The notes: generated by a model from the letters alone, not told the origin. 64,000 nucleotides of DNA from Patescibacteria group bacterium (GCA_035946335.1 DASYZL010000019.1:12414-76413), one strand, 5' to 3'; positions 2,998 to 63,930 are shown, numbered from the stretch's first letter. Numbers and translations: made by a program.

Positions 2998-5900
2998 TTA
3001 ATTCACAATCCACCAGTCAACAAAAATGCTTTGTGTTGCTGGCTTATCAAGTGTTATTGAAAATGATTTACCTGCAATTTTATTGCTTACGCCTATGTTT
3101 ACAGGGCTACTTGCCGTTACAAATATCTTTGATCCACCAGTCACAGCGGTAGTTTGTACAACAACATTTGTTGTTCCTTGTGAGATAGTTACAGTACCAA
3201 GAGATGCACTTGCTGTATTGGAAGTATCCACGTCATATTTCTGTACTGTCATTGCTGCATGTATTTGTATATTCCCACTCGTATCAATCGTCACTTTCCC
3301 ATTCTCGAAGTCTACTCCTGCTTGCGCAAGAGACTGCACTTTCAGTAATGTTGATAGGGTGTTGATGGTTGCGCTTGCTGTACCAGTTGAGGTATCCATG
3401 CCATTGATACTTAATAATCCTGTATCGATGGCTCCTGTTACGCCAAGATCTGAGAGAACTGTCCGTCCTAAAACACTCAGACTTCCTGAAACTGTTGCAT
3501 CCTCTGTTGCAACACCCAACACTGCCTGCATTGCACTGCTTGATGCAAGAGCCTGATTGAGATTTATCTGTTGTTGCACCTGTGCAAGCTGCTTTGACAG
3601 ATCAGCAATTTTTCCAATCTGTGCAGAGAGAGAAGCTGTTTCAGTTTGTAATTGCGATACTGTTGCAGAAAGACTGTTGAATGTATCCGGTGTTATGCCA
3701 TTTTCTGTACCTGCGTTTTGCTGAGATGTTGTTGCAATAATACCTGTACTTGGTTGATTATTCACCGCCAAATTGAATGACGTTGTACTCAGTGGTTGAC
3801 CATTGACTGAAAGATTACCACTATCTGTAAGTTGTATACTTGGGTCGAACCAGCTCAGATTCACAAAAACCAAGATTTTTCCAACAGCTTGTGGATCAGA
3901 ATCAGTATAATTTTCTAATGCTCTCCCAATTGTCCATCCTGATTTAGTTGCTTTCATGGCAACACCAGGGATAGATGATGCAGTTAACATATCTCCAACT
4001 GCAATAGGTCCATTGATGGTTGAAACCTTGGTTGGGACTCTCCCTGAAAGTGCTACGGGTTTAGGATGAATTAAATCTGTTTTTCCTCCGTCTTCAGAAA
4101 TATCAGTGAGTAAGAATCCCGGTTGGGTCGAAATTATACCGATCACGTTACCTCCATTGAACGTGGTTTTTTGGACTCCTTTATTTACAGTTGCGTCAAG
4201 AGAGACAACATCTCCTGGTTCGAGCACATTATTTTTATCAGAATAATTTTCAGCAAGGTCTGTCGAACTGGCGGTAAATGCATTTGCCCAATATACTAAA
4301 TTGCCGCCAGCGGTAATACACGTATGGCCAACTTGAGTTCCTGCGTTATTTTGAATAATGATTCCTTTTGGGCTTCCATTTGCGCAAGCTGAGGTTCCAG
4401 GTAATTTCCATATAATGGTATTGTCAGTTGCGCCGCTTGCCCAATCAAATGTTTGACCTGATGTTCCCCACTTAATACCCCCATTGTCTATTTCTAATTT
4501 ATCTCCTGGTGTCGTCGTGCCTATCCCAACGTTCCCGTTCTGAGTGATGACAAACCGGTTCAAACCGGAGGAGGAAGCAGTGAACAGATCTCCTACTCCT
4601 GAGTTGTCATCAACCAGAGAAGCAAAGGAGGTTTTGCCAGATATGGAGGCAACAGATATTGTTCCGGAGTTTGCTCGAATATCCAATGTTGCCAGTGGAG
4701 ACGTATTGTTTGGTCCTATTCCGATATTGCCTCCATTATCAATATAGAGTCTAGGGGTGTTAAGACCTCCAGTATAAAATTGTAAATTTCCACTCACCTG
4801 ATCTGCGCCTATTGAATTAGTTCCGTTTCTACTTAATCGTAATACTGGACTACTTGCTGATGTATCTAGAGAAATATTTCCCCCTGAGCCCGCTGCAACT
4901 AAAGTGTATCCCGGTGTCGTCGTGCCAACACCTATGTTTCCATTCTGGGTGATGACAAATCTGCTCAAGCCACTGGAAGAAGCAGTGAAGAGATCACCTG
5001 TTCCGGAATTATCTACTACTAATCCGGCCAAGGAGGTTGTTCCGGAAAGAGAAGCAATAGGAACTGTACCAATCGCTGAAGAGATATTTATCTGTCCCTG
5101 TAGGGATAGATTGCCATTGATTCCCGCACTGCCAAACAGCTGGGTATTGCCGGTAACTTCCAAATTACCATTACTAAAAATATTGCCTGCATAAATACTG
5201 CCACCTGCACTGCCTAACCCTCCTCCGCTTGCAGACGCAGAAGCGAGAGACTGCCCTGTCAATCCGATTAAATCCAGGTTTCCCGCAATAGACACTCTGG
5301 CAGTTGAAGCATAATACACGGTTGTTGAGAAATTACCCCCCTGTGGACCACCACCAATGACGTAGAAATACCCATTTGCCGTAACTGCAGACGTAAAGTC
5401 TCTTGCTGCGAGGACTGGAGTTGCATTGGTATTCCATGTTCCGACAGATCCATCACTGTTAAGTTTCGCGTAGTAGATCGTTGTCTGATCATTAGTGCCA
5501 TCGTCTCCGGTAAGCCAGTAAATATACCCATCAGCAACCAGGGATGCTCCTGCAGATCTGGCGGTAGGCATTGAGTTTGCATTTAACCACGCTCCGGTAG
5601 ATCCATCACTGTTAAGTTTCGCGTAGTAAACACTTGAGGAAGCTGAAACGCCATTAAATCCTCCTAAAACATAGAGAAACCCATTAGCAACAACTGCCAT
5701 CGGCTCTTGCAAATTTTGTGCTAGATTATTTGCGCTATTCCATGCCCCAAGTGACCCGTCAGGATTGAATTTTGCGTAGTAGACGGTATTTCTTTGATTA
5801 CCAGCACTAAGAGATCCTGCAATCACATATGCATATCCATTGGCAGCAACTGCTGCGGACATTTCTCTGGTAAATGGCAGTGCGTTGCTATTGGTAATCC

Positions 5901-8166
5901 ACGTTCCGATGGTTCCATTCGCATTCAATTTCGCATAGTACACGGTTGATTGAGAACTCCCTGCGTTATTACGACCTCCGAACACATAAACATAGCCATT
6001 ATTAACAACCGAAGAATTGAAGCGTAGTGTTTGAGGCAAGGCAGTAGTGGGAATCCAGTTACCGGTAGACCCGTCAGCATTCAATTTCGCGTAGTTTACC
6101 GTCGCTACTACGCCCCCTGCAGTATTTCCACCGATATAGTAGACATAACCGTTTGCTTCAACTGTTGAGCCTGCAGCGGCTGCTGTTGGCAGACTGTTGG
6201 TGCTTGTTGACCAGGAACCAATTGAGCCATCCTGGCCTGAATTGAATGCTGCTGTTTTCTGATTGACATCCAATCCGTAGGCTGGTGTCGTCGTGCCGAT
6301 TCCAACATTCCCAGCTTGGGTAATAACAAATCTATTTTGCCCTGATGAAGAAGCGGTGAACAAATCACCAGCTCCTGAGTTGTCAACGACGAGACCTGCA
6401 AATGATGTTGCGCCCGAGATACTTGCTGTTGGTTCAGTACCGTTTAAGCTTCTTACATCAAGTGTTCCCAGAGATCCAGTTGCACCAATAGATAAGGTGT
6501 TCGTTTGTGTTGCCGGAGAGAGTACGCCACTGTTTAACTGCCAGAAGCCGTTCTGACCGCTTGACGCTGAGGTGATGAGATTTTTGACATATAAATTATT
6601 CCATTCCAGAGATGAAGAACCTAAGTTATAGGTATCTGTCACGTTTGGCCCTATATTACCCGCAGTTTGCAGAATAAATGAAGATGGATTTGTTGTACCG
6701 ATCCCAACATTTCCATTCTGATTAATGACAAATCTATTCAGTCCGGAAGAGGAAGCGGTAAAAAGATCACCCTTTCCTGAATTATCGACCACCAATCCAG
6801 CAAATGAAGTTTGCCCAGAGATGGAAGCAACAGCAAGCGTACCTGAGTTTGCCCGAACATCAAGCGTACCTGACAGCGTGTTTGTTCCTGTTCCTATGCC
6901 TACACCGCCGGAATTGGGTTGTAGCGCTAATATGGAACTTGTCAACGTAGAACTTGCTGTCACTTGAGATACTGTTCCATTTTGGAAGAGTTGCAGCGCA
7001 TTGCTACTGTTACTACCATCAATTTGTAATTTCTCATTATTAACAGCATCATATAACAGGAGTAACCCGCTGTCAGGTAGTATCTTTGTATAGTTACTAG
7101 GATTGTCAACAAAGGTAAGATTATTGTTGAAATAAATTCCTGTCGCGAGTCCATTTACATCTCCTATCCCTACTTTGATACTTCCGTCAGTTCCTAGTAC
7201 CTGGAATTTTGCAGAACTTGTTGCTGTCCCACCTATGAGTAGATCGTTTGATATATTTGTCGGAGAGAGAGCACCGGAGTTGAGTTGCCAGTAACTTGCA
7301 CTTAAACTTGTAGATGCTACCCACGATGGTGCTAATCCTGTTCCATTGGATTGAAGCACATAACCGCTAGTACCAGGGGAAAGAGAAGTGAAGGAAGAGG
7401 TACTGTTTGCATACAGAACTCCATTCGCAGTGAACGAACTCGGTGCAAAGCTATCGGTAAGGGTAAGTTTCTTGTTGCTGGTGTCCGAGGAAATACTGAT
7501 GCCGCTTCCTGCGTTAATCGTCAGAGTATCTGAGTTGCTTCCTGCTGAGAAGCTTGTTCCGCCACTGGTTATGGTCTTGAAGATATTCTGACTTGAACCG
7601 GTATCGCTATTGGCGATGGTCAGTCCACTGATGGAAATACCACTACCTTGGGTAAAAGTGAGTGCACCGGTACTCCCTTGCAGGGACAGGACACCGCTAT
7701 TTGTAATGGTTGGATTCTGACCACCGCTGGATGTAATACCGCTCCCTGCTTTGATGGTATAGAGAATATTTGCTGCAGTGAGGGAACCTGATCCAAGATT
7801 CAATCCTTTATTTTTTATGTACACATTACCGTTGAAATTCGAATCGCCATTGACCGTTAATCCCTGGCTGAATTCTGAGGGGTAATTAAATATTAATTTT
7901 GCGTTTATGGGCTGACGTGTCGTACTTGAAGCAGCAAGGACAGATTGATCGTTTTGTTGCTCTGTGGGTTGCGAAGTATTGTTTATAATTCTTGGCGCAA
8001 GGATTGTATAACCGAAATAGCCCGCAGTACCGAAGGAGACAAATAACACAAAAATAACCGATGCAAATGCAAGATGTAATTTCATTCCCTCCAGAACGCG
8101 TATCACCTTTACAGGCAGAAATAAGTTCATTTTGTTCTCTCCAAATACACAGAAGTTACCACCCAT
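2998..8166 (-). CDS. Giant secreted/cell-surface repeat protein of 1722 aa. It has a signal-anchor, four copies of a ~50-aa SISG..[20 protein letters not shown] module, a six-blade Kelch-like propeller, a conserved ~100-aa GD.VS...IPGV domain, a coiled-coil and a C-terminal FVDWWIVN tail.
   Basis: Single 5.2-kb ORF. N-terminal TM: [24 protein letters not shown]. Alternative in-frame starts lie at 8130 and 8085. Module repeats: [60 protein letters not shown], four times. Kelch-like repeats: [10 protein letters not shown]...[16 protein letters not shown], six times. ORFs on the opposite strand inside it are low-complexity artefacts. Confidence 0.8.
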   Translation of the reverse strand: [1722 protein letters not shown]

Positions 8167-8331: not shown

Positions 8332-8598
8332 TTATACCGATTCTATATCAAGAAAAATAGAGACTTTATTTTTTAGTACTTTTATAACTCCCCTTTGAAT
8401 AGGTATCGTTTTTTTGTCAACCTTTGTTATAGATAATATCACCTGATTTTTTATTAAACAGATAAAATTTGCGTGCAACGGTAATACATCGAACACCCCT
8501 CGTTCATTGTATGACGTTACCGCATAGACACTCCCCTGAAAAAGAGTATTCTCCGGATTTTTAATAGTAACAGATAGATTATTGCTATCTATTTGCAT
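8332..8598 (-). CDS. atpC: F-type ATP synthase epsilon subunit.
   Basis: 88 aa. ...GVFDVLPLHANFICLI... resembles the epsilon N-terminal beta-sandwich. It is the last gene of the atp operon, directly after atpD. Confidence 0.7.
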   Translation of the reverse strand: MQIDSNNLSVTIKNPENTLFQGSVYAVTSYNERGVFDVLPLHANFICLIKNQVILSITKVDKKTIPIQRGVIKVLKNKVSIFLDIESV

Positions 8599-8606
8599 AT
8601 AGTACT

Positions 8607-10839
<2,233 letters not shown>

Positions 10840-10852
<13 letters not shown>

Positions 10853-12306
10853 AAATTCTGAAGTTTATTTCCTTCTTTTTTAATCACGCTGAGAAATTCG
10901 TCAATTGTTTGTAGTGACATAAATGATGCAAACAATTCTTGATACGTTTTTTCTTGTGCTTTTTCAATCAATATTTTCTCGGTAGAACGAACATGCTCCT
11001 TGTCGCCTTGGAGCATTCCGTTTAACAGTAATCCTATCATAACAAGCTGGATTTCAAGCGGAATGAGAAGGTGTTCTGACTGATCAAACAGGGTAAGAAT
11101 TTGCTCGCCGCGCTGAAGTGTTATTTTTGCATCTTCGGATAATTCCTGACCAAAATATGACAACGACTTGACCCGATTATAATCAGCCAGGTGTGCTGAA
11201 ATACGACTGGCAAGCTGAGATGAAAGTTTATTCTGTGTTTGTTTTCCTACACGGGTTATAGAAAGCTCAATATTGATACTCGGCCGTCTTCCCTCATAGA
11301 AAATATCAGTGTCAAAAAACAAATGGCCGTCAGTAATGCTCATGAGATTTGTTGTCAAATAATCACTCACATCTCCCTCAAGCGTTTCAACGACAGGAAG
11401 ACATGTTATAGCAACTTCTCCTTTTTCTTTATGCGTAAAGTTCCCTGCCCGCTCAAGCAAACGGGCATATGTATAGAAAATATTACCTGGGTACGAGTCA
11501 CGTCCGGGATATTTTTTGGCAATCAATGAGAATTCACGATAATACTTTGCGTGCGTCAACAAATCATCGAGCACGAGAACAACATCACTTCCTTTACTCG
11601 CAAAGTATTCCGCAATAGTCATCGCACTAAACGGTGTCAAATAGATAAGCCCAGGTGAATCAAGAGCATAAGAAGCAACGATAACCATGTTTTTTGCCAT
11701 TTTATTCTTGCTTATTATGCTCTCAACAAGAGCAATATCGCTCTTCTTTTTTCCAATTGCGCCATAGACAATTATTGCTCCTTCCGCTGCCTGTTCCTGC
11801 ATTGCGTTAAGAACAAATGAACTTTTCCCTGTTTTTCTGTCGCCGAGAATTAACTCTTTTTGTCCCTTGCCAAAGGGCAAAAGCATGTCAACTACAGTAA
11901 CGCCAGTCAGGAGCGGACGGGTAATCCGTTTTCGCCCTAAAATACCCTCAGGAACTGTGTGAACCGGAAACAAATCAGGAAGAGATGGTATGGGAGTAGA
12001 AAATGAGAGAGACCTACCAAGCGGTGAAATTGTTTGCCCTAAAAGGGCTTCTCCAGCAGGAATTTGTAATGCTTCATTCGTTCTGACGAGTCTGCTGCCA
12101 ACAGAGACTGGTTCCGAAGAAAATACGAGAACGCTTGCTTCATCTTTATACAATGTGAATACTTCACCTATTTGTCCGTCTTCAAATAATACTATTTCTT
12201 TTATTCTTAACCCGGGTAAACCTCTTACCGCAACGACCGGGTGATTAATCCGGATTACCTCACCGTACTCCTCATATGTATTAAGATAGTGAGAAAATGT
12301 CTGCAT
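10840..12306 (-). CDS. atpA: F-type ATP synthase alpha subunit.
   Basis: 488 aa with GDRKTGKSSFVLNAMQEQ (alpha P-loop) and the LLRPPGREAYPGD-like motif (REFSLIAKKYPGRDSYPGNIFYTYARLLERA). Confidence 0.92.
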
Positions 12307-12312
12307 AGCATT

Positions 12313-12558
12313 TTATTCTGCAATCCCAAGTTTTTTTGCAATAGTATAGTCCTTATGTTTTCCATTGTACTCGATAATTGCTCCTGCAATAAGATTTGTA
12401 TCTATGGTAATATCCAGTTGCACTGGCTGATGGATTTCTTCTGTAAACCAGTCTCTGATTGATGCAAGCTGTTTTTCCGTTGGATGAAACGCCAAAGTGA
12501 TATGTGCTACTTGTGGCATTGCTTTACCTGTTTGAGGAGGTTTTTCTATAACAGTCAT
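12313..12558 (-). CDS. atpH: Truncated ATP synthase delta (OSCP) subunit. Only the C-terminal domain is present.
   Basis: 81 aa. ...QLDITIDTNLIAGAIIEYNGKHKDYTIAKKLGIAE aligns to the delta C-terminal domain (..[27 protein letters not shown]..). Its start overlaps the atpF stop in an ATGA arrangement, which suggests translational coupling. Confidence 0.65.
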   Translation of the reverse strand: MTVIEKPPQTGKAMPQVAHITLAFHPTEKQLASIRDWFTEEIHQPVQLDITIDTNLIAGAIIEYNGKHKDYTIAKKLGIAE

Positions 12559-13220
12559 AGGAAAATACCATCTTCCTTGGCTTCTTCTAATGCTTCCTGG
12601 AGTAATGCCTGGTGATAGGAGGCAGGAATACTCTTTTTCATTACTTCCCGATACGATTTTACCACCAGCTCATTTACCTCAGCTGCTGCTTTTGATACTT
12701 GATCCTTTTTGTATTGTTCAATCATAGTGCGCGCTTCGGCCAACTCCTCATCGATAAATTGTTGTAGTGAACTTTTATTATCTATGGTTTCTTTTTGTAA
12801 ATCAGCGAGAGCGGCTGCAAGCAATACCTGACTTTTTTCCTGTATGGACTGTAAGGTAACAGTGAGGTTTCTCTTGTATGCCTTCAGATATTCTGCTGAA
12901 ACAAGAGAAAGTGAGTCTATGTCTTTCTGTAATAATTCCTGAACTGCTTTATCGAGTGTATTATGCACATCTGTTTTTGTCTGACCTGTTGCTGCGAGCA
13001 TTTGAGCAGATAAATCAGCTGCTTTTTCCACTATATTTTCTGCCTGATTCTGCCCGCTTTGAAGAATAGATTGGTAGTTATTTAATGCATGTGCTTCTTT
13101 ATCCTGAAACGTTTTCTCTTTTTTTAATAAAACGTAGACAAATAAACCTAAAGAAACGAGAACAATTAATCCAAAAAAGAAAAAAATATCCGTAATAAGC
13201 GGTGAAGTAAAAATATTCAT
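12555..13220 (-). CDS. atpF: ATP synthase b subunit (one N-terminal TM plus a long helix).
   Basis: 221 aa. N-terminal TM: IFFFFGLIVLVSLGLFVYVLL. The remainder is predicted coiled-coil, in the usual position between c and delta. Confidence 0.7.
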   Translation of the reverse strand: MNIFTSPLITDIFFFFGLIVLVSLGLFVYVLLKKEKTFQDKEAHALNNYQSILQSGQNQAENIVEKAADLSAQMLAATGQTKTDVHNTLDKAVQELLQKDIDSLSLVSAEYLKAYKRNLTVTLQSIQEKSQVLLAAALADLQKETIDNKSSLQQFIDEELAEARTMIEQYKKDQVSKAAAEVNELVVKSYREVMKKSIPASYHQALLQEALEEAKEDGIFL

Positions 13221-13984
13221 ATCCGTAATATCAGGTATCCCATGAAGATACCTGTTAATAATATTATGATAACCATAATGACGTTTAGCAATATAGAAAG
13301 TTCAATCATTTGGCCAGCTAAAGGGTTTCTACCGATTGCTTCAATACCCCGATGGATAGTTTTTGAAAAAATAAGAAATCCAAGACCAAACGATGCTAAT
13401 ATAACAAGAAGAGCAACGAGTAGCTTCAGTGCGACAACGGGATCTTCATATGTTGCAATTTCGCTTAGATTAAGCACATCGAGAAACGGTATGACAACAG
13501 GACTGGCAAATTGTTGGAAATGAATATTTATGCTTACCGTAATCTGCCTGACCTCATTTTTAGATGCGAAGGAAACAGGGTTGACAGACGCTCCGATAAC
13601 ATATCCACTTGTCACTGCTTTCTGACCTACTCCAGGAATTGTTGACGTCGTAATGAAATCACCTTTTTTTAGGTTACCATTGATTCCCGATACGTTAACG
13701 ACAGCATCACCAATATTAATAACCGGATAAGTTTTTGTTGCTCCAGGAACTTCAATGGTAATTGCAGGATTGGCTATAATCACACCTGTTATTAGCTGAT
13801 CATAAGCTTTATTACTCAAGTGATATCCTTGGGGTGAAAAGGAAACTATATCTCCAACGGCGATATTTTTATCGGCTAAAGGGAAATAGTTTGCGATACC
13901 TATTGAAGAAGCAAGTATTTGAACTGGTAGAATAAAACTTAACAACAGAATAAATAAAAGACATAAACCAATACGTTTTCCCAT
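13217..13984 (-). CDS. atpE: ATP synthase c-subunit (C-terminal ~65 aa hairpin) fused to a ~190-aa N-terminal signal peptide plus extracytoplasmic domain.
   Basis: The C-terminal LIFSKTIHRGIEAIGRNPLAGQ...LLTGIFMGYLIL aligns with c-subunit TM1-loop-TM2 (PS3: LIVSRTIEGIARQPE...). The N-terminal part has a signal peptide (MGKRIGLCLLFILLLSFILPVQILA) and the GD.VS...IPGVG domain also found in the two giant proteins. Confidence 0.65.
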   Translation of the reverse strand: MGKRIGLCLLFILLLSFILPVQILASSIGIANYFPLADKNIAVGDIVSFSPQGYHLSNKAYDQLITGVIIANPAITIEVPGATKTYPVINIGDAVVNVSGINGNLKKGDFITTSTIPGVGQKAVTSGYVIGASVNPVSFASKNEVRQITVSINIHFQQFASPVVIPFLDVLNLSEIATYEDPVVALKLLVALLVILASFGLGFLIFSKTIHRGIEAIGRNPLAGQMIELSILLNVIMVIIILLTGIFMGYLILRI

Positions 13985-14299
13985 AGGCAGAAAGGAAAGA
14001 CAACAATAGTGTTCTTCCTTTTTCAGTTTGGGTTAATTTGACTGAAAAGTCAATGTTTTTCAGAGTGAGCAATCCGCATTATGTTGTAGCTACAATCACT
14101 TTTCTTCTTCCATCAGGAGAATCAATGCTCGCTAATCTTCTTCCATTTTTCACATTTACATTAAATGTCCAGTTAACAGTCTCTCCTGATTTTCCAGACA
14201 GATTTGACATCGTAATATCAACTTCACCTATTCCCTCCTGACCATAAACTACAGGAATAGCTCTCACTTTTTTTCTGTTCCCTGAAATGGATCACCGAC

Positions 14300-14581
14300 T
14301 TAATTCAGAAGTCCGGGAAGATCAGTCGTTGTAAAATCAAATGAATACAAACGCCAACCTGCTTGATAAGAACTGTCTGAAATAATTGCGCGTACGGCAA
14401 GACGAACTTTGTCAGTAACTTGTCCTTCTTCAGGCGATTGCCAATTCGCTGCACTAAGTGAGAAATTTTCCTGGCTCGAACGATATTGTAAAACGAGATT
14501 TATTCCTTCTACAAGTAAACCTCCTCCTATTACTGCTCCAACACACCTTGCTCTTTCTTTTAATATTTCCTTTTTTTGCAA
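14300..14581 (-). CDS. Hypothetical small protein upstream of the atp operon.
   Basis: 93-aa ORF only. There is no recognisable motif, and it is not an a-subunit (not polytopic). Confidence 0.3.
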   Translation of the reverse strand: MQKKEILKERARCVGAVIGGGLLVEGINLVLQYRSSQENFSLSAANWQSPEEGQVTDKVRLAVRAIISDSSYQAGWRLYSFDFTTTDLPGLLN

Positions 14582-14728: not shown

Positions 14729-15478
14729 ATGGAAGATAGCCTCACAAAAGATGAGAAGAAGAAACTCCGTCAGGAAGAATGGAAAGAAAAACTGCAAAAA
14801 GAAGAGCAAAAAAAGCGAATGACAAAGATGAGCTGGTGGATAGGTGGATTTATCCTTTTGGGGTTAAGTGTATGGTTCTTGTATGCAGTTGTTAATGGAT
14901 CGAATGGAAGTACTGGTTCGGCAACGGCAACTGCAACCGTTAGTGTTCCTGCTGTAGGTAATGATGACATGACCAGTGGACCAATAAACGCAAAAGTGGT
15001 TTTCATCGAATATGCCGACTTTCAATGCCCGGCATGCCTTGCAGCATATCCTCTTATCAAACAGCTGATGCAAAGTTATAATGGGAAAGTGCTTTTTGTT
15101 TACCGATTCTTTCCACTAGAAAACATCCACCAGAATGCACTCATTTCGGCACAGGCCGGATATGCTGCTTCCAAACAAGGGAAATTTTGGGAAATGCACG
15201 ACGTACTATTTGATCATCAGAATGATTGGGCAACAATGAGCAACCCCCAGGCTACATTTGTCAGTTATGCAAAAAATCTTGGGTTAAATACTGATCAATT
15301 TAGAAAAAATATGACAGATCCAAAAACCGCATTATATATCAAAACACAAGAGCAAAAAGCTTTGCAAATTGGATTAAATGCTACACCAATGTTTTTTATC
15401 AACGGGAAGCAGATTGAAGGAGCAGGAGTATACAGTGATTTTAAAAAATTGATTGATCAGGCATTGATGGGAAAATAG
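14729..15478 (+). CDS. DsbA-like thiol:disulfide oxidoreductase (membrane-anchored thioredoxin fold).
   Basis: 249 aa. It has a charged N-terminus, a TM segment (WWIGGFILLGLSVWFLYAVV), a CPAC active site in ..FIEYADFQCPACLAAYP.., and a DsbA-type fold signature. Confidence 0.8.
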   Translation: MEDSLTKDEKKKLRQEEWKEKLQKEEQKKRMTKMSWWIGGFILLGLSVWFLYAVVNGSNGSTGSATATATVSVPAVGNDDMTSGPINAKVVFIEYADFQCPACLAAYPLIKQLMQSYNGKVLFVYRFFPLENIHQNALISAQAGYAASKQGKFWEMHDVLFDHQNDWATMSNPQATFVSYAKNLGLNTDQFRKNMTDPKTALYIKTQEQKALQIGLNATPMFFINGKQIEGAGVYSDFKKLIDQALMGK

Positions 15479-15479
15479 T

Positions 15480-15977
15480 ATGGCAATAACGGGAAGTAAT
15501 TATTCTCTGCAAAAAGCGCTTAACAGATTTTCCTCTTTTTTATCTTCATCTGTTCTTTTTACATTCTCCTTGCTCCTTGCATTTGTGGGTTTTCTTGACG
15601 CAACATATTTAACCATTACGCACTACAAGCATATTATCCCCCCCTGTACAGTCAGTGGCGGTGGTTGCGAAACAGTTTTAACGAGCCAGTTTGCAACTAT
15701 CTTCGGAATTCCTATTGCAATATTTGGCGCACTCTATTATATAGCTCTTCTTATGTTTCTTCTGCTATATCAGCAGAAGAAACAGTCACAATTATTATTC
15801 CTTAGTTTACTTCTTGTTTCTGTTGGACTTTTTGTCTCAATTGTCTTAATTATTATTCAGGGATTTGTATTGCATGCATTTTGTCAATATTGTTTAGTAT
15901 CAGAAGTAGTCACATTTATCCTTTTTGATACTGTTTGGTGGTTACGGAGAAAAAGTATCGTACACAAGCAAGCTTAG
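15480..15977 (+). CDS. Vitamin K epoxide reductase (VKOR) family protein, the DsbB-functional analogue.
   Basis: 165 aa, polytopic. Conserved Cys pairs are present (..PPCTVSGGGCETV.. and C-terminal CQYC). It sits immediately downstream of dsbA in the same orientation with a 1-nt gap. Confidence 0.75.
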   Translation: MAITGSNYSLQKALNRFSSFLSSSVLFTFSLLLAFVGFLDATYLTITHYKHIIPPCTVSGGGCETVLTSQFATIFGIPIAIFGALYYIALLMFLLLYQQKKQSQLLFLSLLLVSVGLFVSIVLIIIQGFVLHAFCQYCLVSEVVTFILFDTVWWLRRKSIVHKQA

Positions 15978-24410: not shown

Positions 24411-25049
24411 ATGAAGTTTATTCTCCAGTCTCTTGTACTCGTTTCTTCATTTTGTCTTGTTTTCATGTGGGAACGAACCAACCTTTCTAATTACTCTATC
24501 CAAGCTCTATCAATCCTTATTATTGCCTATATTCTTCTTACTGCGATCCGCCATAGAAAAAATCCTCAAGCAAATTTTGGAGGTATGACAGATATTTTTA
24601 TTCTCAATACTGCAATCTTTTTATTGATTTTCTTGACTAATGATATTATTTCTCCGCTTTTCTTTTTACTATACTTTCTTGGTTTTGGTATTACGTTTAT
24701 TTTTGAACCTGTAACTGTTTTTGTTTATACGCTTGGGGCAATTGCAATTTTCCTTCCGGTTGTATTGAAAAACGGAGCGATGGATAGTTACTTAAAACTT
24801 GGATCGCTCCTGCTTATTACACCCCTGGCTTTTTTCTTCGGGCAAACGTACAAAGATAGAGACAAAGAGCTAACCCAGATGGAGGCACTGGAAGAGCGCA
24901 GTAAAAATGCTGCTGATACAATTGCCCAGGAAGTAAAAGAAATCATTGTCACTGAGAAGAAAAACCTACAAGGAAAAAACCTTGAGAAGCTTAATGAGAT
25001 CCTCGAAGAAACAGAAGACTTGCGTGAAGAAACAAAAGAGTCTCTATGA
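24411..25049 (+). CDS. Polytopic membrane protein with a C-terminal cytoplasmic coiled-coil (hypothetical). First gene of the surface-protein cluster.
   Basis: 212 aa with about five hydrophobic helices, then an E/K-rich helix (EALEERSKNAADTIAQEVKEI...). Confidence 0.5.
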   Translation: MKFILQSLVLVSSFCLVFMWERTNLSNYSIQALSILIIAYILLTAIRHRKNPQANFGGMTDIFILNTAIFLLIFLTNDIISPLFFLLYFLGFGITFIFEPVTVFVYTLGAIAIFLPVVLKNGAMDSYLKLGSLLLITPLAFFFGQTYKDRDKELTQMEALEERSKNAADTIAQEVKEIIVTEKKNLQGKNLEKLNEILEETEDLREETKESL

Positions 25050-31770: not shown

Positions 31771-31785
31771 TATAATTTGTATAAT
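31771..31785 (+). promoter_or_regulatory. Tandem -10-like hexamers (TATAATttgTATAAT) upstream of the giant gene.
   Basis: Read from the sequence. They lie in a 700-nt AT-rich leader region and overlap the TTG start (31777) used by the ORF track. Confidence 0.35.
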
Positions 31786-31836
31786 CTCGAGGCTAAAGAA
31801 CAAATTTCACGGATTTCACAACTACTAATCAGACGA

Positions 31837-34800
31837 ATGGAAATTATTCAAAAATTTAAAGCTTATTTGCTTTCGCAGAGATCTGTTCCCTCAAAGGCAA
31901 CGGTAAAAAACTATATTGCTGATATTCATCACTTTATTGAATTCTGTGAAAACTCACTTCATCAGACGTTTTTACCTTCTGAAATACATGCGGAACAACT
32001 GGAAGCGTTCAAAATTAAAAAACTACAAGATTTATCAGCAAGTTCTGTTGAACGCCACTTCTCTTCACTTCGAAAATTCTTTATTTTCCTTAAACTCGAA
32101 GGATATATCGCTGTTACTCCGTTTGAAAAAGCCGAGATTGAAGCTCCTGTTTCAGTTGACCCGTTTCATTTAAAAGAATTTAAAGATTATCTCTATATCT
32201 ATAACGCATCGCATCTTACAATAAAAAACTACCTCATTGACATTAAGCAATTTCTCCATTGGGCAGAGGAAGTAACTAAAGTAAAAGATAATTATCAAAT
32301 AAGTGAGCAGAATGTCATGCATCTTGTGAATGATAAATTCATTGAGGAATATCGTGACAGATTACTCCGCGAGCAGATATTCTCTCCTGCTTCAATTAAC
32401 CGGAAACTTTCATCGCTTCGGAAATATCTTGCGTGGGCATCTGAACAGGGTTTATTGCAGTCGAGAACTCCTTTTATTACAAATATTACCGAAGATTTGC
32501 ATATTCTCCCACATACTGAAGCAGCAAATCTAACAGAATTCCCGATAAAATCAGGCTCATATTCAAAAATTCCTCCGGTGAGACTTTTTCAGAAAATACA
32601 TGAAGGATTCGATCTTATATTTGAGTATAGCGTTATTGTTCCTCTTGCAAAAGCTGCAGGAACATTCGGATACCACTTCTGGGTTATGAAAGGTAAACCA
32701 TTATTCGTGACAACAGCGCATATTGGTTTTTCACGTCTAAAAAATCCAGTACGATTTCGTAATATATCAAAAGCTGTCTATGAACCTCTTTCTCTTTCAA
32801 CAAAGCATTTTCCGCTGCATAAAAAAATAATGCATCATATCCGTTATTCAAGGCCGGACTGGTATCGCAATTATCGCTCTAATGCTGTAAGTGCTTATTT
32901 TAACTTAGCGATAATTGGAATTTTTATCCTTGCAATAGGATTCAGTGGCTATCTTGCCTTCGGCAGAAGATCACAATCAACGTTAGCAGCTCTCCCTACT
33001 GCTCCGCCAAGAATTTTATCTTTTCAAGGTAGACTGACAGACCAAAATAACAACGCAATAACAATAAACTCGAATTTGCGTTTTGCTATTTATAATGACA
33101 CGTCCGCCACTGGCTCCGGGCACATACTGTGGCAAGAAGTTGACAAGGTTACTCCCGACAGTGATGGCGTGTTTTCAGTTTTATTAGGTAATGGCTCTTC
33201 CTGCGGAGCTGATCCTACTGTGGTTGCTACTGGACCATGCCAGATTCCCTCAACACTTTTCACGCAGAATGCAACGCTTTACCTTGGTGTTACCATTGAA
33301 GCAACCTCAGAACTTACTCCGCGACAGCAACTTGCTACCGTTGCCTATGCCACAAATGCTGAAACCTTACAAGGACTTCCCCCAATCACTGCTGCTGGCG
33401 CAGGAACAAATAATGTCGTACTCGCACTTGATGGTTCGGGAAATTTATCTATTGGTGCTTCAACAACGTTTCAATCAACTTCCGGACAATTTACTCTTTC
33501 GGGAAATTCTATTGTACTCAATACAAATGCGGCTTCTAACGGCAACATTGTTTTAGCGCCAAATGGTTCGGGATTTATTGACCTTCAAAAACCACTACAT
33601 AATAGTACTTTAAATAACAATATCACTTCTGCTGCGGGGGCAGTAGAAGTGGATGGTCTCCTCGCAATATTAGCCACAAGCAGCGGGCAATCAGCTTTCA
33701 CTATCAATCAAAACGGAGCGGGTCCTATCATTAGCGCAAGTAGTAGTGGGAATGCTAAATTCACTGTTGATAATAGTGGAAACGTTACGGCGAACTGGTA
33801 CTATACAGGACTCGGTAATACTTACTATATCAATAACGCTACATCTAACCTTAACTCACTCACTTTAGCAGGAAACTTTAGTCTTTCGGGAAATGTCACG
33901 AGCAACCTTATTCCTTCAGCAGCGGACACATATAACCTAGGATCTTTGGGGAACGAATGGAATACGTTATACGCAAAAAACATCATCACTTCTTCATCTG
34001 CTGGTATTGGAACAGGTTTGTTTGGCAATGCAGAGCTGGTTGTGAATCAACCAAATGCTGCGGGAGATATTTTCACAGCTTCACAATCAGGAAACACCAA
34101 ATTTACCGTCGGTAACTCCGGTTCTCTCACCGCTGCCACCTTTAATACTGCAAACGGTGTCATATATAGTACCAATACATCAGGACTTCTCTCAGAAACA
34201 GCTGCGGGAACAACAGGACAGTGTTTTACCGGAAACACAGGGAGTGCACCGACATGGTCATCCTGCTCCTCTGCTGCATCAAACTTCTGGCAACTCAACT
34301 CCGGTGCGCTTGCTCCACTCAACATTACCAATGACCTCCTGATCGGTGGTGTCTCAACAGGCAGCGCAACCACTTCCTTCCAGGTATTTGCCAAAGCATA
34401 CAGCAATGATCAGGGCACTGTTCCTGCAGGAACAGCAACAACCAGCGGAAATATTGTGTTCAACGGAACTGGAACACAAGCATACAACCTTCTCAATAAC
34501 TCCTCCCTAGGTTTTTACACTTCCTACGGTGGAGACAAAGGACTCAGTGCCACCCCATCCCTGTTCATTGCCAACAGCGGAAGTAACGGGAATGGGAGTG
34601 GCTTTGTTGGGGTAGGGACAAACAGTCCAGGAGCAACACTTGATGTGAATGGCAACCTGCTCCTTGGTGCAAACAGCACCATTGATGCAAGATCCTCAGG
34701 AACCCTTACCATTGGTAACGGAGCAAATACATCAGGATTAACCCTTGGCAAATCAGGGGTAACAACAACATTCAACTCAACCTCATGGACTGCAACACCA

Positions 34801-37800
34801 ACCATTAGTGGACTCATCACGGCAAACGGAGGGTTAACAGTTGCATCAGGAAAGAACCTGATCCTTTCAGAACTGACTGCTGGCTCCGTACCGTTTGTTG
34901 GTGCCAGTAACATACTTTCCCAGGATAACAGTAACCTGTTCTGGAATTCCGGAAGTAAACAGCTTGGTATTGGCGCAAATAGTAACCTGGCAGGAACACT
35001 GGACGTGAGGACAACATCAGGAACCCTTTCTGTGGCTTCCATCTCAGGAGCTACCTCTTTTGCTGGACTTGTGGTTGATAACTCAGGTGTCGGTGATCTG
35101 TTCACTGCGTCATCATCAGGACTCAATCGATTTACCATTAAACAGAACGGAAACATTACTGATACAACTGCAACCAGCGTAAACTTCTCTGGTGCTGCGC
35201 TCACTGTTTCTTCGTGTACTGGATGCGGTGGAGGATCTAGTACATGGACGACCTTTACTAACAATTCCAATACAATCATCGATCCGAATCCTTTGACTGA
35301 TGCCCTGTCCATCGGGAACGCTGGAACAGGCAATTATCTTCCCTTCTCGAGTTTCTATGTTGAACCCTCCTTTAATTCTAAAGGCAATGCATTAGTAGGC
35401 ATTAATCAGACAGGTGGAGGCCCAATCTTTACTGCTTCGCAGTCAGGGAATACAAAGTTTGTTATTGACAACGCTGGCAACGTTGGGATAGGGACGACGA
35501 TACCATCTCAATCTTTACAAATTGCAGGAGGAAGTGTTTTGCTAGATAATGCCCAGTTTTACGAATTTAAAGACCATGCATCTGGAGCAACAAGAGGCAT
35601 ATTGACTTTAACCTCAGCGGATAATGTACAACTAAACAATGGAGCCGGAACCAATGGAGGAAATATACAAATAGGCATCACAAACTCTGCTAATACTACA
35701 GGTAAGATTGAGTTTTTAAATATAAATTCTGGAGGCACAGAGGTAGAAAGGATGCGACTTGATCCAAATGGACTTCTCGGTATTAATACAACATCTCCTC
35801 TAGGAATTCTTGATATAAGAGGAAACAATGTTAATGGGACGAACCCAATGAATGGCACCATCCCAATTGCCTCTTTCTCCGGTCAGACTTCTTTCGCCGG
35901 ATTGGTTGTTGACAACTCCGGAGTTGGAGATCTATTTACTGCATCATCGTCAGGATTGAATCGGTTTGTTATAACTCAGAACGGGAACGTTGGGGTGGGC
36001 ACAAGCACCCCAGCTCAACCGTTGACGATTAGCGGTACCAATAACTTCCTCGCACAATTAAATAACACCTCTGATTATGCCAGACTAAGACTAAATGGAG
36101 CTATCAATAAAGGAAGTGATTATATTTTTGGTTCTAATGGCAGTTCTCAGTTTGGTATGTATACGCAGGGCGGGAGTGGCGGCAATAATGATTTAGGATT
36201 TTTTCCTAACGATGGATCAATACCCGACTTATATATAACAAATAATACAACTAGCTCAAATACTATCGCAATGGGTGGCGGATTGAGTCAAGGAATGACT
36301 CCACTTGGCACGCTTGATTTGAGAGCTGCTTCTGCAACTCTTCCCGTTGCCTCAGTTTCTGGTAATACCACTTTTGCTTCTCTAGTCGTTGACAACTCGG
36401 GAGTTGGCGATATATTTACTGCTTCATCCAGCGGGCTGTCACGATTTACCATCCAGCAAAATGGTAATATCGTGCTTGGTGCTGATATATCAACACCCTC
36501 TGCGCTCACTGTTCGAGGCGGAATAGCTTCAGGTACCAACACTACAGGAGGAAATCTCACGTTTAATGCTTCCAATGGCACAGGTACAGGTGGATCAGGT
36601 TCTGTGATCTTCCAGACTGCGCCAGGAGGGGTGACTGTTGACTCGACAGCATATACTGTCACGGCAGCGGGTCCCTCCACGGTAAGCTGGAAACATACAG
36701 TCGGAACGGAAAATAATATGCTCTTGATTGTCAATGTCGGGTTGAGTACGGGTGCAGTCACGGTTTCGGGTGTAACGTACAATGGTGTCAGTTTATCTCA
36801 TATGACTTCAGCACCGGAACCTTGTACCGTCAACACGAGCTGCACTGCGGACATGTGGTATCTCAAGGCACCTGCAAGCGGGACAAACAGTGTCATTGTG
36901 ACACTGAGCGGAATAACTGCCAATGTCGTTGGCTCATCGATCTCACTATATAATGTTGATCAATCAAGTAATACTTTTGGAACCGCGGTGGTAGCGCAAA
37001 ATAGCAGTACCGGCACGGTGACGAACACAGTTACAACAGTCGCAAATCAGCTTGTTGTTGATTCCTTTTCAGCCCATGGAAGCGGCATCTGGAACAACGT
37101 CAGTCCCCAATCCGGATATGGCGAAGATAACAGCCATGGCTGGGGAGCTTCCTCTTATCAGGCAGCAACCGGAACAAGCACAGCAATGTCATGGAATAAT
37201 ACCGGGACATTGGATAAATGGGCGGATATTGCTGTGCCTATCAACCCGGTCTCAACGACCAGCGATAGCTTAGTTAACTCCCTATCCATAAATCCAGACG
37301 GAAATATAACCATAGGGTCTGCCTCTGCCCAGGAGCGTTCGCTTGCCGTCACCGGCACGTGGGGTGGCAATGTCGTTGTTGATGCACAGTCAGAAACAGG
37401 CGGAACAACACTTATCAACGAGTCAACGCCCGCTCTCGTGTATGATTTATCAAACAATCAGGGAACAAATGCAAACAACAGTACTGTTACGTTCAATATT
37501 ACCGCTTTGCCTAATGTTGATGGCACGTTCGCATTTATCCGTTCGCACGCTACTAAAGGAGTGACAGGATCAAACCAGAAAGATACTGTTGTGGTGCAAA
37601 TCAATGGAACAGAAATTACCTCAATTACAACAACAGCAAACACTACTGCGCAAGATGCATCAGGGAACTATGTGGTTTTTCGCTCAAACGGCGCGTGGCA
37701 TCTGGAGCTTGGGACCAACCAAAGTTCCAGTGACACTACCGATCTTGCTGAATGGATTCCGTTTGCTGGAGTTAAGCCACAACCTGGAGAGCTCGTCAGT

Positions 37801-39792
37801 GCTGCAACGCAATCAGGAGTTACTGTGCAAAAAACACAGGGTGCATATGACAGTAAGGTTTTAGGCATTATCACGACGAATCCGAATACGGTGTACGGAA
37901 AAGAAACGGCAGATTCAATTGTACTAGCCCTTGCCGGACGGGTTCCCACCATTGTTACGTCACTTTCCGGGAATATCGGACTGGGTGACGCGATTGTTTC
38001 CTCTCCTATTCCGGGTGTTGGTATGATTCCACAGCAAGCTTCAGAATCAGTCGGAAAAGCACTGGAATCATTTACTCCTACTGCTTCCACTTGCCAGACG
38101 GTATCTTCCTATGATGCCATTTCCTGGCCGGATGATAATGGCACAAACCAAAACCATCCGTGCTATGGCATTCCTGTTTCAGGATTTGACCAGCAAACGC
38201 AACAGACACTGATAAAACAATACGCTCTACTTCCTACAGACATTGTCTATGTGGGGAAAATTATGGCACTTACTAATCTTTCATATACCAGTCCTGTTAT
38301 CGCCTTAACAAATGCGGGAGACCTTACCATTGAACCAATTGCTTTAAGTGGTAACGGTATTGAAACGCAATATGGGGTTAAGACTACCCAAGGAAATCTT
38401 CTTACAGAGATCGGTTCTTTTGCAACAGCAGTCATTGGCAATATTCGTGCAGGTGGCATTTCAGCATCTGCTATTGCAACTAATTCCCTTTCCGTTGCTA
38501 CAGATAACGTTTCCATTAGCGGACAACCTCTTCGTGACTATATCATTGGGGTCGTGACTCAGGCAAACTTACTTGCGCAAAATAGTATTACTTCTCCTCT
38601 GGTAAGCGTTAGCACGATCCATACGAATATTATTTCACCGTTAACGAATACATCTCATATTGCTCTTGACCTTTCAAACTCTAGGTTAGAAATCAAAAAA
38701 GACGCAAGCGGTTCTGCTGTGGCTAGTATTGATACTAATGGCAATGCATCATTTTCAGGAACACTTAACTCGGAAAATATTGCAGTCAATAACGATGCAA
38801 CTGTTTCCGGAACACTCCATGTCCATAAAATCGTGGCTGATGAAATACTTGGGCAATCGGAAAATGTGAGTACAATTGCTGCGCAAAATATTACGAATGT
38901 TACGAATATTTATTTCGCAACACCCTCTGGGACACCTGCTGCTGAAAATATCGCTACAGGACTTGGCAATACAAGCACTCAATCAGGTGATTTGCTAGCA
39001 TCAGGCTTTTCACAGGCTTCACAATTCATGAATATTGCATCTTTTTCAGGTGAATTTGCCTATATCCCCAATCTCCACGCAACAACAGGATTGTTTGAAG
39101 AAGGACTTGCAGCGTTGGGACCGACAAGCCTGACGGATACCTCTATCAATGGACAGCTTACTATCGGCAAGCAACTCCTGCTTGCTGATACCAGCATTAA
39201 CGTCTTGGGTGGAGATCTGGAAATTCAACCACTGAAACAAGGTGGCGTATCGTTTGCAGATGGAACTATTTATATTGATAATAATGGCAATATCAAATTC
39301 AACGGCACAGCTACATTTAATGGTAAACTCGCAGTAAACATCATTTCCCCTTTAGGGAATGATAAAAATCTTAATCTGCAACTAGGAAAAAATGCAAGCG
39401 GCTCCGCCATTGCAATATCTGATTTGTCTGTAAACAATGCTTCAGGTTCAGGAATCTTTACTATTGACCAGCTAGGTAATCTGGTTGCTTCAGGAGCGGC
39501 AACTATTGCAAAGCTGAATTTTAATCTTGTACAACCGGCGCAGGCGTTATCTGATACAGAAGTTGTCGCGACCGGCTCAGCAGGAACAGCAGCAATTGCA
39601 CCCTATCAAACAGAAGTAACCATTGATAATCCTAATGTCACAGAAAATTCACTGATTTATATCAGTCCTGTTGGCAATATTTCCGGACAAACTCCCTATC
39701 TACGAAGGCAGGTTGCCGGTAGTTCATTTACCGTTGGTATCCCGCAAGACACACAATCACAAACATACTTTAACTGGTTAATCGTCAACTGA
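31837..39792 (+). CDS. Giant surface repeat protein of ~2650 aa. From N to C: two tandem phage-integrase-type SAM-like core-binding domains (cytoplasmic), a TM signal-anchor, SISG..[20 protein letters not shown] modules, the GD.VS...IPGVG domain and a C-terminal YFNWLIVN tail.
   Basis: 8-kb ORF. ATG at 31837 preferred ([11 protein letters not shown]...); the ORF track uses TTG 31777. The SAM-like repeats are [15 protein letters not shown]...[29 protein letters not shown] and [15 protein letters not shown]...[52 protein letters not shown]. Modules are shared with the 2998..8166 protein. Confidence 0.8.
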   Translation: [2651 protein letters not shown]

Positions 39793-63255: not shown

Positions 63256-63930
63256 CTATTCTAGATCATCTCTTCGCGCATGCATATAAGAAAAGAACTG
63301 CTCTGAAAACATAAAAAGTGCTTTTAATGGCGCTTCGATAAGAAAATCAAAGATAAAAATGACAAAATTTACCTGCGAAATACCCTCTGTCAGATACATT
63401 CCGACCCGTACAATAGGAATAATAAGAAAGTCTACAAACGGAGTAAGTAATCCCTGCTTTTCATCAACTGAATAAGAGTGGGCTGTTAAATTGATTCTGT
63501 ACGACAGGAATGAAACAACGGTGAGGAAAAAGAGAAAGATCGCCTGGCTGACAGTGTCAAAATGTAAATCACGGAGAATTGAGATAACCAAACCAAAGCT
63601 TACTACAAACGCTAAAAGCCCCAAGAAACCAAAAATAATGGGAAGGAGCGACTTCTTTTTCGGTGGATGGACAAATAGTTTTAACGGAGGAATTATTTTC
63701 GGTTCTGATTCAAACAGGACCATGGATATTTTATCAAAAATCCGTTGTGAATTATCTTTGCCCGGTGTTTGAATAAATAAACTAGCAACTATCATCAGAA
63801 GTGGCGGGATTCCCATATTGATTCCCAGAGTTTCCCACATAAAATGACCATAACGCCACTTCTCATACGTTCCCTCCACACCAAAGGCAAAAACAGCTTT
63901 GGTTACAATAAGAAAAATGACGCTTCTCAC
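63256..63930 (-). CDS. Polytopic membrane protein (hypothetical).
   Basis: 224 aa with 5-6 hydrophobic helices and no recognisable catalytic motif. Confidence 0.4.
   Translation of the reverse strand: MRSVIFLIVTKAVFAFGVEGTYEKWRYGHFMWETLGINMGIPPLLMIVASLFIQTPGKDNSQRIFDKISMVLFESEPKIIPPLKLFVHPPKKKSLLPIIFGFLGLLAFVVSFGLVISILRDLHFDTVSQAIFLFFLTVVSFLSYRINLTAHSYSVDEKQGLLTPFVDFLIIPIVRVGMYLTEGISQVNFVIFIFDFLIEAPLKALFMFSEQFFSYMHARRDDLE

Follow-up and report, generated by a model that had tools for sequence, protein, structure and literature searches.

A Patescibacteria group bacterium (GCA_035946335.1) encodes a protein in which a domain predicted to be secreted is fused to a membrane hairpin homologous to subunit c of the F-type ATP synthases, and this hairpin has lost the carboxylate that binds the transported ion. 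The gene lies at positions 13217-13984, on the minus strand, of a stretch of 64,000 nucleotides (DASYZL010000019.1:12414-76413; hereafter the window, in which all positions are counted), and it heads an operon with the genes of the peripheral stalk and of F1. Because the proton-binding residue has been lost, a domain outside the cell has been gained, and no proton-channel gene adjoins, ATP is probably spent on work at the cell surface and not on ion pumping. The reading that we favour, and to which we would give an even chance, is that of a derived F-type ATPase that would translocate no ions and would pass the energy of ATP to an extracellular crown, in analogy to the F1-like X0 ATPases of mycoplasmas.

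Homology of the C-terminal hairpin to subunit c

The open reading frame (ORF) of 255 amino acids (aa) starts with ATG, contains no internal stop or frameshift, and ends in an ATGA whose bases its stop codon shares with the start of the following b-like gene. An earlier reading made from the DNA alone (the sequence-only reading) had proposed a single gene joining a secreted domain to a c-type hairpin, and had advised a search for homologous fusions in related genomes. The frame is indeed intact, with nothing that would split it into two genes, and the fusions do form a conserved family, found in at least 378 of 185,579 species genomes, all of them Microgenomates-type Patescibacteria (Levy-, Roizman-, Woese- and Shapirobacteria, and WWE3), a large assemblage of very small, uncultured bacteria. 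The family comprises about 887 cluster representatives (50% identity) at E<=1e-30, with 110 word-index matches. Existing annotation calls the protein 'hypothetical' or, by COG, 'subunit c/K', and no NCBIfam model matched it.

The same reading had aligned the C-terminus to the helices of subunit c, and several lines of evidence agree with this alignment. With the Pfam family of subunit c (PF00137), the window protein alone had no match at E<=1, and 11 of 46 relatives matched weakly (best E=0.022). Since the single protein fell short of PF00137, we used as a profile its alignment with 45 homologues. When this profile was searched against all PDB sequences, the top matches were all c subunits (9itj_H of Chloroflexus, E=0.0019; 2wie, 0.0024; 4bem, 0.0031), the chloroplast one among them, and the alignment spanned the entire hairpin in a single register. 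When hairpins of the family (108) were compared by hhalign with eight c subunits of the canonical kind, the probability was 87.6% (E=3.5e-6, 70 columns), and a hidden Markov model (HMM) of the fusion hairpins also retrieved canonical c subunits. In the AlphaFold (AF2) model of the monomer (predicted local distance difference test, pLDDT, of 90.8), helices 182-219 and 221-254 superpose on c subunits with TM-scores of 0.74-0.85 and root-mean-square deviations of 1.5-2.3 A. A homologue search with the hairpin of the single sequence found nothing, and its alignment-based version yielded mostly gene fragments.

The fusion has the two transmembrane helices and the short polar cytoplasmic loop R-[QN]-P that characterise subunit c. 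Its loop, AIGRNPLA, is the most conserved stretch of the protein: the residues G-R-N-P are invariant in 108/108 homologues, Ala216 and Ala223 are nearly so, and the Gly at Pro+24 is invariant. A near-identical loop, GLEAIGRNPEA, occurs in the stand-alone c subunits of related bacteria. Since profile, hhalign, structural superposition and conserved loop agree, and the gene stands in the place of that for subunit c, homology of the hairpin to subunit c is well supported. The likeness to canonical c subunits (PF00137/COG0636; Chloroflexus aurantiacus 9itj; the c subunits of candidate phyla radiation (CPR) type at our loci L091-L097) thus extends from the hairpin, the (G)LEAIGRNP loop and the Gly at Pro+24 to the place of the gene, directly upstream of those for b, delta, alpha, gamma, beta and epsilon. 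The fusion differs from them in having about 180 extra N-terminal residues, no Glu or Asp at Pro+18, no gene for subunit a upstream, and no GxGxGxG motif in helix 1, where the consensus of the 108 homologues is S-F-x-x-G-F-x-x-F-G-R.

The ion-binding carboxylate is lost

In every alignment the canonical Glu/Asp falls on Pro221+18, a position taken by Ile239 in the window protein, as the sequence-only reading had it. Among the 108 homologues this position is mostly Ile (47), Val (21), Leu (17) or Ala (11), more rarely Phe (4), Thr (3) or Gly (3), and in none of them Asp or Glu. That reading had further suggested that the carboxylate was displaced, to the Glu of the MIELS motif (Glu228, at Pro+7). 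This part fails: Glu228 is peculiar to the window sequence, as Glu occurs at Pro+7 in 3/108 homologues and Gln in 74/108. Because Glu228 is not conserved and helix 2 has no conserved acidic residue across the 108 homologues, the carboxylate is lost, not displaced. The split is binary in 60 metagenome loci: Glu stands at Pro+18 in every stand-alone c subunit (71-85 aa), and a hydrophobic residue takes its place in every fusion (240-290 aa). Conventional ion translocation by the fusion protein is, judging from its sequence, unlikely, because the canonical carboxylate is missing.

Ions might still be carried through a site made without a carboxylate, facing a stator protein of a kind not recognised. 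Helix 2 does have conserved polar residues that could form it, Gln at Pro+7, Asn or His at +13 (N95/H9 of 108) and Thr at +17 (65 of 108). However, every characterised rotary ATPase needs, to our knowledge, an acidic residue facing an Arg of subunit a; the helix-1 position of the Gln of Na+ sites is Phe in 97/108 homologues; and no conserved polytopic membrane protein was found to accompany the operon across the loci. We therefore hold this explanation to be highly improbable.

Subunit a is absent from the fusion loci

We made an HMM of seven a subunits of CPR type and ran it on six-frame translations of 1.70 Mb, covering about +/-10 kb around each operon and the 64-kb window. It detected subunit a in all loci that have a stand-alone c (18/18), and in those whose gene order was examined, a lies directly upstream of the Glu-bearing c. 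In the fusion loci, the window included, it detected none (0/125). None of the 125 fusion loci has a second c gene nearby. In the 64-kb window we found no gene for subunit a, the region upstream of the c-like gene included; two polytopic proteins (24411-25049 and 63256-63930) were considered and rejected, as they have neither a Pfam match nor an a-subunit motif. The Pfam family of subunit a (PF00119) matched none of 33 polytopic ORFs near fusions (positive control, 1.8e-32). A phmmer search of all locus ORFs with the E. coli a subunit also gave no matches, but this test is insensitive, as it misses a genuine CPR-type a subunit too, and it was for this reason replaced by the Pfam scan and the CPR HMM.

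A normal a, and perhaps a normal c, could be encoded elsewhere in these genomes. The fusion would then be a minor or accessory component of a mixed c-ring, or would regulate an enzyme that does translocate ions. Mixed rings containing carboxylate-less hairpins exist, e.g. with c1 of Acetobacterium woodii, and our evidence on subunit a comes from loci and not from whole genomes. The ProAD collection lists a few c/K subunits without Glu/Asp (PMC11738941). The fusion resembles A. woodii c1, the V-type proteolipids and these 'non-catalytic' c/K subunits in having a c-type hairpin without the ion-binding acidic residue, but in those systems other hairpins of the ring keep the carboxylate and a/I is present, whereas the fusion is the only c-type gene of its operon. 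The mixed ring also fits poorly with the contrast between 18/18 canonical loci with a and 0/125 fusion loci with a or a second c, and with the fusion taking the very position of c. The sole contig with an apparent pair of a and carboxylate-less, stand-alone c (P0280/L088) is an assembly chimera: in the comparison of L088 1-420 with L091 84-500, its DNA is 100% identical for 305 nucleotides, up to the GRNP codons, then diverges and switches to a fusion-type helix 2, faking the pair. We therefore rejected it. On these grounds an ion-translocating enzyme completed from elsewhere seems quite unlikely.

An F1 with conserved catalytic motifs

In the window, the genes for c-like, b, delta, alpha, gamma, beta and epsilon subunits follow each other in this order, tightly packed on one strand (Table 1), and the fusion gene is co-transcribed with the others. 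The same order was observed in about 70 of 86 loci. All genes of a canonical F1Fo operon for alpha, beta, gamma, delta, epsilon and b are thus present; the difference from such an operon is subunit a (PF00119), missing from the 125 fusion loci. Catalytic motifs are kept: the beta P-loop GGAGVGKT in 59/61 loci, GVGERxREG in 46/61, and the Arg-finger motif of alpha in 65/68. Since they are kept across loci, F1 is, as far as its motifs tell, catalytically competent and under selection. Its sequences are divergent: beta reaches 380 bits with the best solved beta, all F1 subunits fall under the NCBIfam equivalog cut-offs (e.g. beta, 450.7 < 462.85; gamma, 61 < 194), and alpha scores equally with atpA and with the model of the alpha of the Mycoplasma mobile gliding ATPase.

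Such low scores, together with a truncated delta in the window genome, could be taken for the signs of a functionless ATP synthase in decay. This is scarcely credible in a family conserved in so many species genomes and clusters, with intact reading frames, catalytic motifs kept and loop residues invariant.

Two subunits are short. Epsilon lacks its C-terminal domain: most fusion loci encode one of 81-100 aa (range 81-140), whereas six canonical operons encode one of 139-142 aa (75 aa at L089). This domain inhibits hydrolysis in bacterial F-ATPases. Delta has 138-238 aa in relatives, mostly 150-170, against 81 in the window; the 81-aa gene is also found in an independent assembly (L087). The match of the window alpha to atpA begins near profile position 23, so that its N-terminal helix is missing; this helix normally binds delta.

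Table 1. Features of the fusion gene, its operon and related modules in the window
Feature	Position	Strand	Basis or content
c-like fusion gene, 255 aa	13217..13984	-	signal peptide, ectodomain and c-type hairpin
Predicted Sec signal peptide, aa 1-25 (MGKR and hydrophobic helix, ...ILA/SS)	13910..13984	-	AF2 helix 2-18; predicted
Extracellular beta domain, aa 28-159, phage cement/decoration-protein-like fold	13508..13903	-	pLDDT 91-98, Foldseek, Pfam in relatives
Linker (pLDDT about 60) and short pre-membrane helix 170-180	13442..13507	-	AlphaFold model
Hairpin helix 1, aa 182-219	13328..13441	-	AlphaFold model, family alignment, hhalign
Cytoplasmic loop AIGRNPLA, aa 216-223	13316..13339	-	family alignments
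Hairpin helix 2, aa 221-254	13223..13324	-	AlphaFold model, PDB profile search, hhalign
Codon ATC, Ile239, canonical ion-binding Glu/Asp position (Pro221+18)	13268..13270	-	alignments and family table
Codon GAA, Glu228 (Glu of MIELS)	13301..13303	-	sequence and family table
b-like peripheral-stalk subunit, 221 aa, N-terminal transmembrane helix and long helix	12555..13220	-	position/synteny; faint NCBIfam b matches
Truncated delta/OSCP, 81 aa, C-terminal domain only	12313..12558	-	Pfam OSCP 1.3e-7, profile positions 104-165
alpha subunit	10840..12306	-	profile matches
gamma subunit	9977..10852	-	profile matches
beta subunit, P-loop GGAGVGKT and GVGERIREG intact	8607..9986	-	profile matches, motifs
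Short epsilon, 88 aa, beta-sandwich only	8332..8598	-	profile matches
Copy of the ectodomain module in the 1722-aa surface protein (aa 1304-1440)	3847..4257	-	BLASTP 1e-7; N-domain HMM 2.4e-26
Copy of the ectodomain module in the 2671-aa protein (aa 1990-2104)	37744..38088	+	N-domain HMM 4.6e-18

Topology and fold of the N-terminal domain

A basic n-region and a hydrophobic helix (residues 2-18) mark the start of the protein, and Ala25, ahead of the domain, is nearly invariant, so that residues 1-25 fit a signal peptide of the Sec/signal peptidase I type. A lipoprotein signal was ruled out, since Cys8 is not conserved and no lipobox precedes it. Because of the signal peptide and of the basic residues concentrated in the loop, the ectodomain is predicted to lie outside and the loop inside, the normal orientation of subunit c, in agreement with the outside location given to the N-terminal domain by the sequence-only reading.

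The ectodomain, of about 130 aa (residues 28-159), is modelled with confidence, and Foldseek places it nearest to phage cement or decoration proteins (Pam3 8hdt_G, 2.2e-4; also 8pkh, 5wk1_K and 7kmx_a; E from 2e-4 to 9e-3, probability 0.99-1.0). The matched phages are Pam3, Borrelia BB1, TW1, XM1 and SHP, and the fold also matches the C-terminal auto-chaperone domain of the phi29 tail spike gp12 (3suc/3gqh). Pfam gave weak matches in relatives, to XM1_gp53 in 19/46 and to Phage_cement_2 in 6/46 (best 5.5e-6); the window protein itself scored 14.5 bits against phage cement families (PF09956, PF23982), under the cut-off of 27. The ectodomain of the fusion resembles in its modelled fold the cement proteins of Pam3, BB1, TW1 (gp56) and XM1 (gp53) and the C-terminal domain of phi29 gp12, but it is cellular and not part of a virion, it is joined to a membrane hairpin, and the identity is only 9-19%.

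The same module is found in giant proteins that adjoin the operon at 10 other loci. In the window, the giant proteins of 1722 aa (2998-8166, minus strand) and 2671 aa (31777-39792, plus strand) have one copy each. One of the two has Kelch repeats and fibre-like repeats, and a sortase gene (2017-2718) adjoins that of 1722 aa.

Variants of the locus

In two reduced loci the fusion still adjoins genes of the rotor or of F1: L031 (689-2675) has c-like, gamma and epsilon genes alone, and L068 (9923-14676) has c-like, alpha, gamma, beta and epsilon, without b and delta. L125 (5928-8198, plus strand), from a soil metagenome contig, holds a second type of fusion: its protein, of 756 aa, joins a signal peptide and immunoglobulin-like (Ig-like) domains of the Big_1 and Invasin-D3 families to a C-terminal c hairpin that scores 1.6e-4 and 22.3 bits against PF00137 (cut-off 24). 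This hairpin has a Gly-rich helix 1 in which GxGxGxG is present, the loop GLEAIGRNP, and a helix 2 free of acidic residues; delta, alpha, gamma and beta lie downstream, and an aldolase gene, not that of subunit a, lies upstream. Since its Ig-like ectodomain is unrelated to that of the window fusion, the association of an ectodomain with a carboxylate-less c is not tied to one type of ectodomain.

A few other arrangements were observed. A phosphoglycerate mutase (iPGM) gene lies between c-like and b at L001 (10775-12469) and L005 (10784-12511). The c-like gene has no ATPase genes downstream at L048 (2656-3678; a 340-aa version in WWE3), and at L090 (76-348) it is followed by a toxin-antitoxin pair and a transposase in their place. 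Many clearly patescibacterial contigs (L009-L084) are titled 'uncultured Gammaproteobacteria bacterium' or 'Saccharibacteria' and are probably mislabelled metagenome-assembled genomes. In the window, upstream of the c-like gene, two small ORFs (14079-14267 and 14300-14581, minus strand; 62 and 93 aa) are also called in L087; they match no family and are not conserved at other loci. Beyond them, a divergent pair of genes for a DsbA-like thioredoxin and VKOR (14729-15977, plus strand) suggests disulphide formation outside the cytoplasm.

A motor that may work on the cell surface

The loop of subunit c contacts gamma and epsilon in known enzymes. A rotor ring that would be driven by F1 and yet be free of ions is the simplest reading of our data, because this loop is invariant while the ion site and subunit a are gone. 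The mechanism could involve 1) oligomerisation of the fusion protein into an assembly like a c-ring, which would bind gamma and epsilon through AIGRNPLA, as suggested by the invariance of the loop and by a gene that adjoins those for gamma, epsilon and other F-type subunits; 2) display, by each protomer, of its domain resembling cement proteins at the outside of the membrane, so as to make a crown, the decorated c-ring proposed by the sequence-only reading; 3) hydrolysis of ATP by F1, which would turn or strain the ring against the stator of b and delta; and 4) mechanical delivery of this energy to the cell surface and not into an ion gradient. Candidates for the work done there are adhesion, movement or remodelling of surface fibres, and contact with a host.

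Some observations weigh against such a machine. We infer ring formation, rotation and outward display, while the structural model is of a monomer. The absence of subunit a holds for the surroundings that were searched, about +/-10 kb around the operon and the 64-kb window; without subunit a, the b stator may lack a hold in the membrane. Strict coupling by torque fits poorly with a delta that is truncated in the window genome and with operons in which b and delta are missing. Finally, the packing of the ring may differ from that of known c-rings because helix 1 lacks GxGxGxG.

Part of this would be expected if the hairpin were only an oligomeric anchor in the membrane, serving to display the ectodomain or to tether F1, with no outward rotation, F1 being a membrane-bound ATPase with a role in regulation or assembly. 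A missing partner for the stator, a shortened delta and the loss of b and delta at L068 all suit an anchor, as does an ectodomain that is a generic surface module, present in giant proteins as well. Yet an anchor would account neither for an invariant G-R-N-P loop nor for the persistent linkage to gamma, epsilon and a complete F1, and b and delta are kept in most loci, which argues for a coupled machine of rotor and stator. In addition, a fermentative cell whose genome is tiny would pay dearly for an uncoupled ATPase. We consider the anchor unlikely, and return to an F-type ATPase that would spend ATP on an extracellular crown.

The closest parallel to such an ATPase comes from the Type 2 and the Type 3 gene clusters of F1-like X0 ATPases in mycoplasmas, in which 'Protein 5', encoded next to the F1-like genes, combines a signal peptide with large surface domains and with two uncharged C-terminal transmembrane helices (PMC3369863, PMC12994834). 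These ATPases are required for the cleavage of antibodies at the surface or for gliding (PMC3369863, PMC12994834). The fusion resembles 'Protein 5' (MSC_0620, MMCAP2_0577, MMOB1650) in its order of signal peptide, ectodomain and two C-terminal helices and in its clustering with alpha-, beta-, gamma- and epsilon-like genes, a likeness of architecture only; subunit a is missing in both systems. The differences are several. First, the fusion operon keeps b and delta in most lineages, whereas the X0 clusters have neither. Second, the X0 clusters include a protein with 12 transmembrane helices and a small cytoplasmic protein, and the fusion operon has no such proteins. Third, the hairpin of the fusion is still recognisable as a c subunit. 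Fourth, its ectodomain is small, except in the 756-aa protein of L125. Fifth, scores with the mycoplasma alpha and beta families (MSC_0618/0619, MMOB1660/1670) were 404, 256, 368 and 341 bits, below cut-offs of 520-850.

A broader idea, which we put forward tentatively and with the chances against it, is that in Microgenomates a c-ring could serve as a shaft across the membrane that spins, or exerts torque on, a crown resembling adhesins or cement proteins, with an ectodomain that varies between lineages (beta-tulip-like here, Ig-like in L125). The hairpins of the mycoplasma 'Protein 5' might then be the same invention, and both might belong to a general class of F-type ATPases exporting mechanical energy and moving no ions.

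Implications

CPR bacteria often have 'minimal' or incomplete complexes (PMC10656485), and some Saccharimonadia encode 'only F1' (PMC9166423). In the literature that we searched, we found no published description of the fusion family, nor any that connects it with the loss of subunit a. Because a co-culture of Microgenomatia now exists (bioRxiv 10.64898/2026.06.21.733656), experiments may be possible if the co-cultured strain carries the operon.

Rotary ATPases are understood as ion-coupled machines. If our reading is true, the large lineage described here would retain F1, the stalks and a ring of c type, without the carboxylate and subunit a and with a domain added that faces outward. It would offer a second example, independent of that of the mycoplasmas, of an F-type motor rewired for work at the cell surface. 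The statement 'ATP synthase present' in metabolic reconstructions of CPR bacteria would then need rereading, as the enzyme could neither use nor build a proton gradient.

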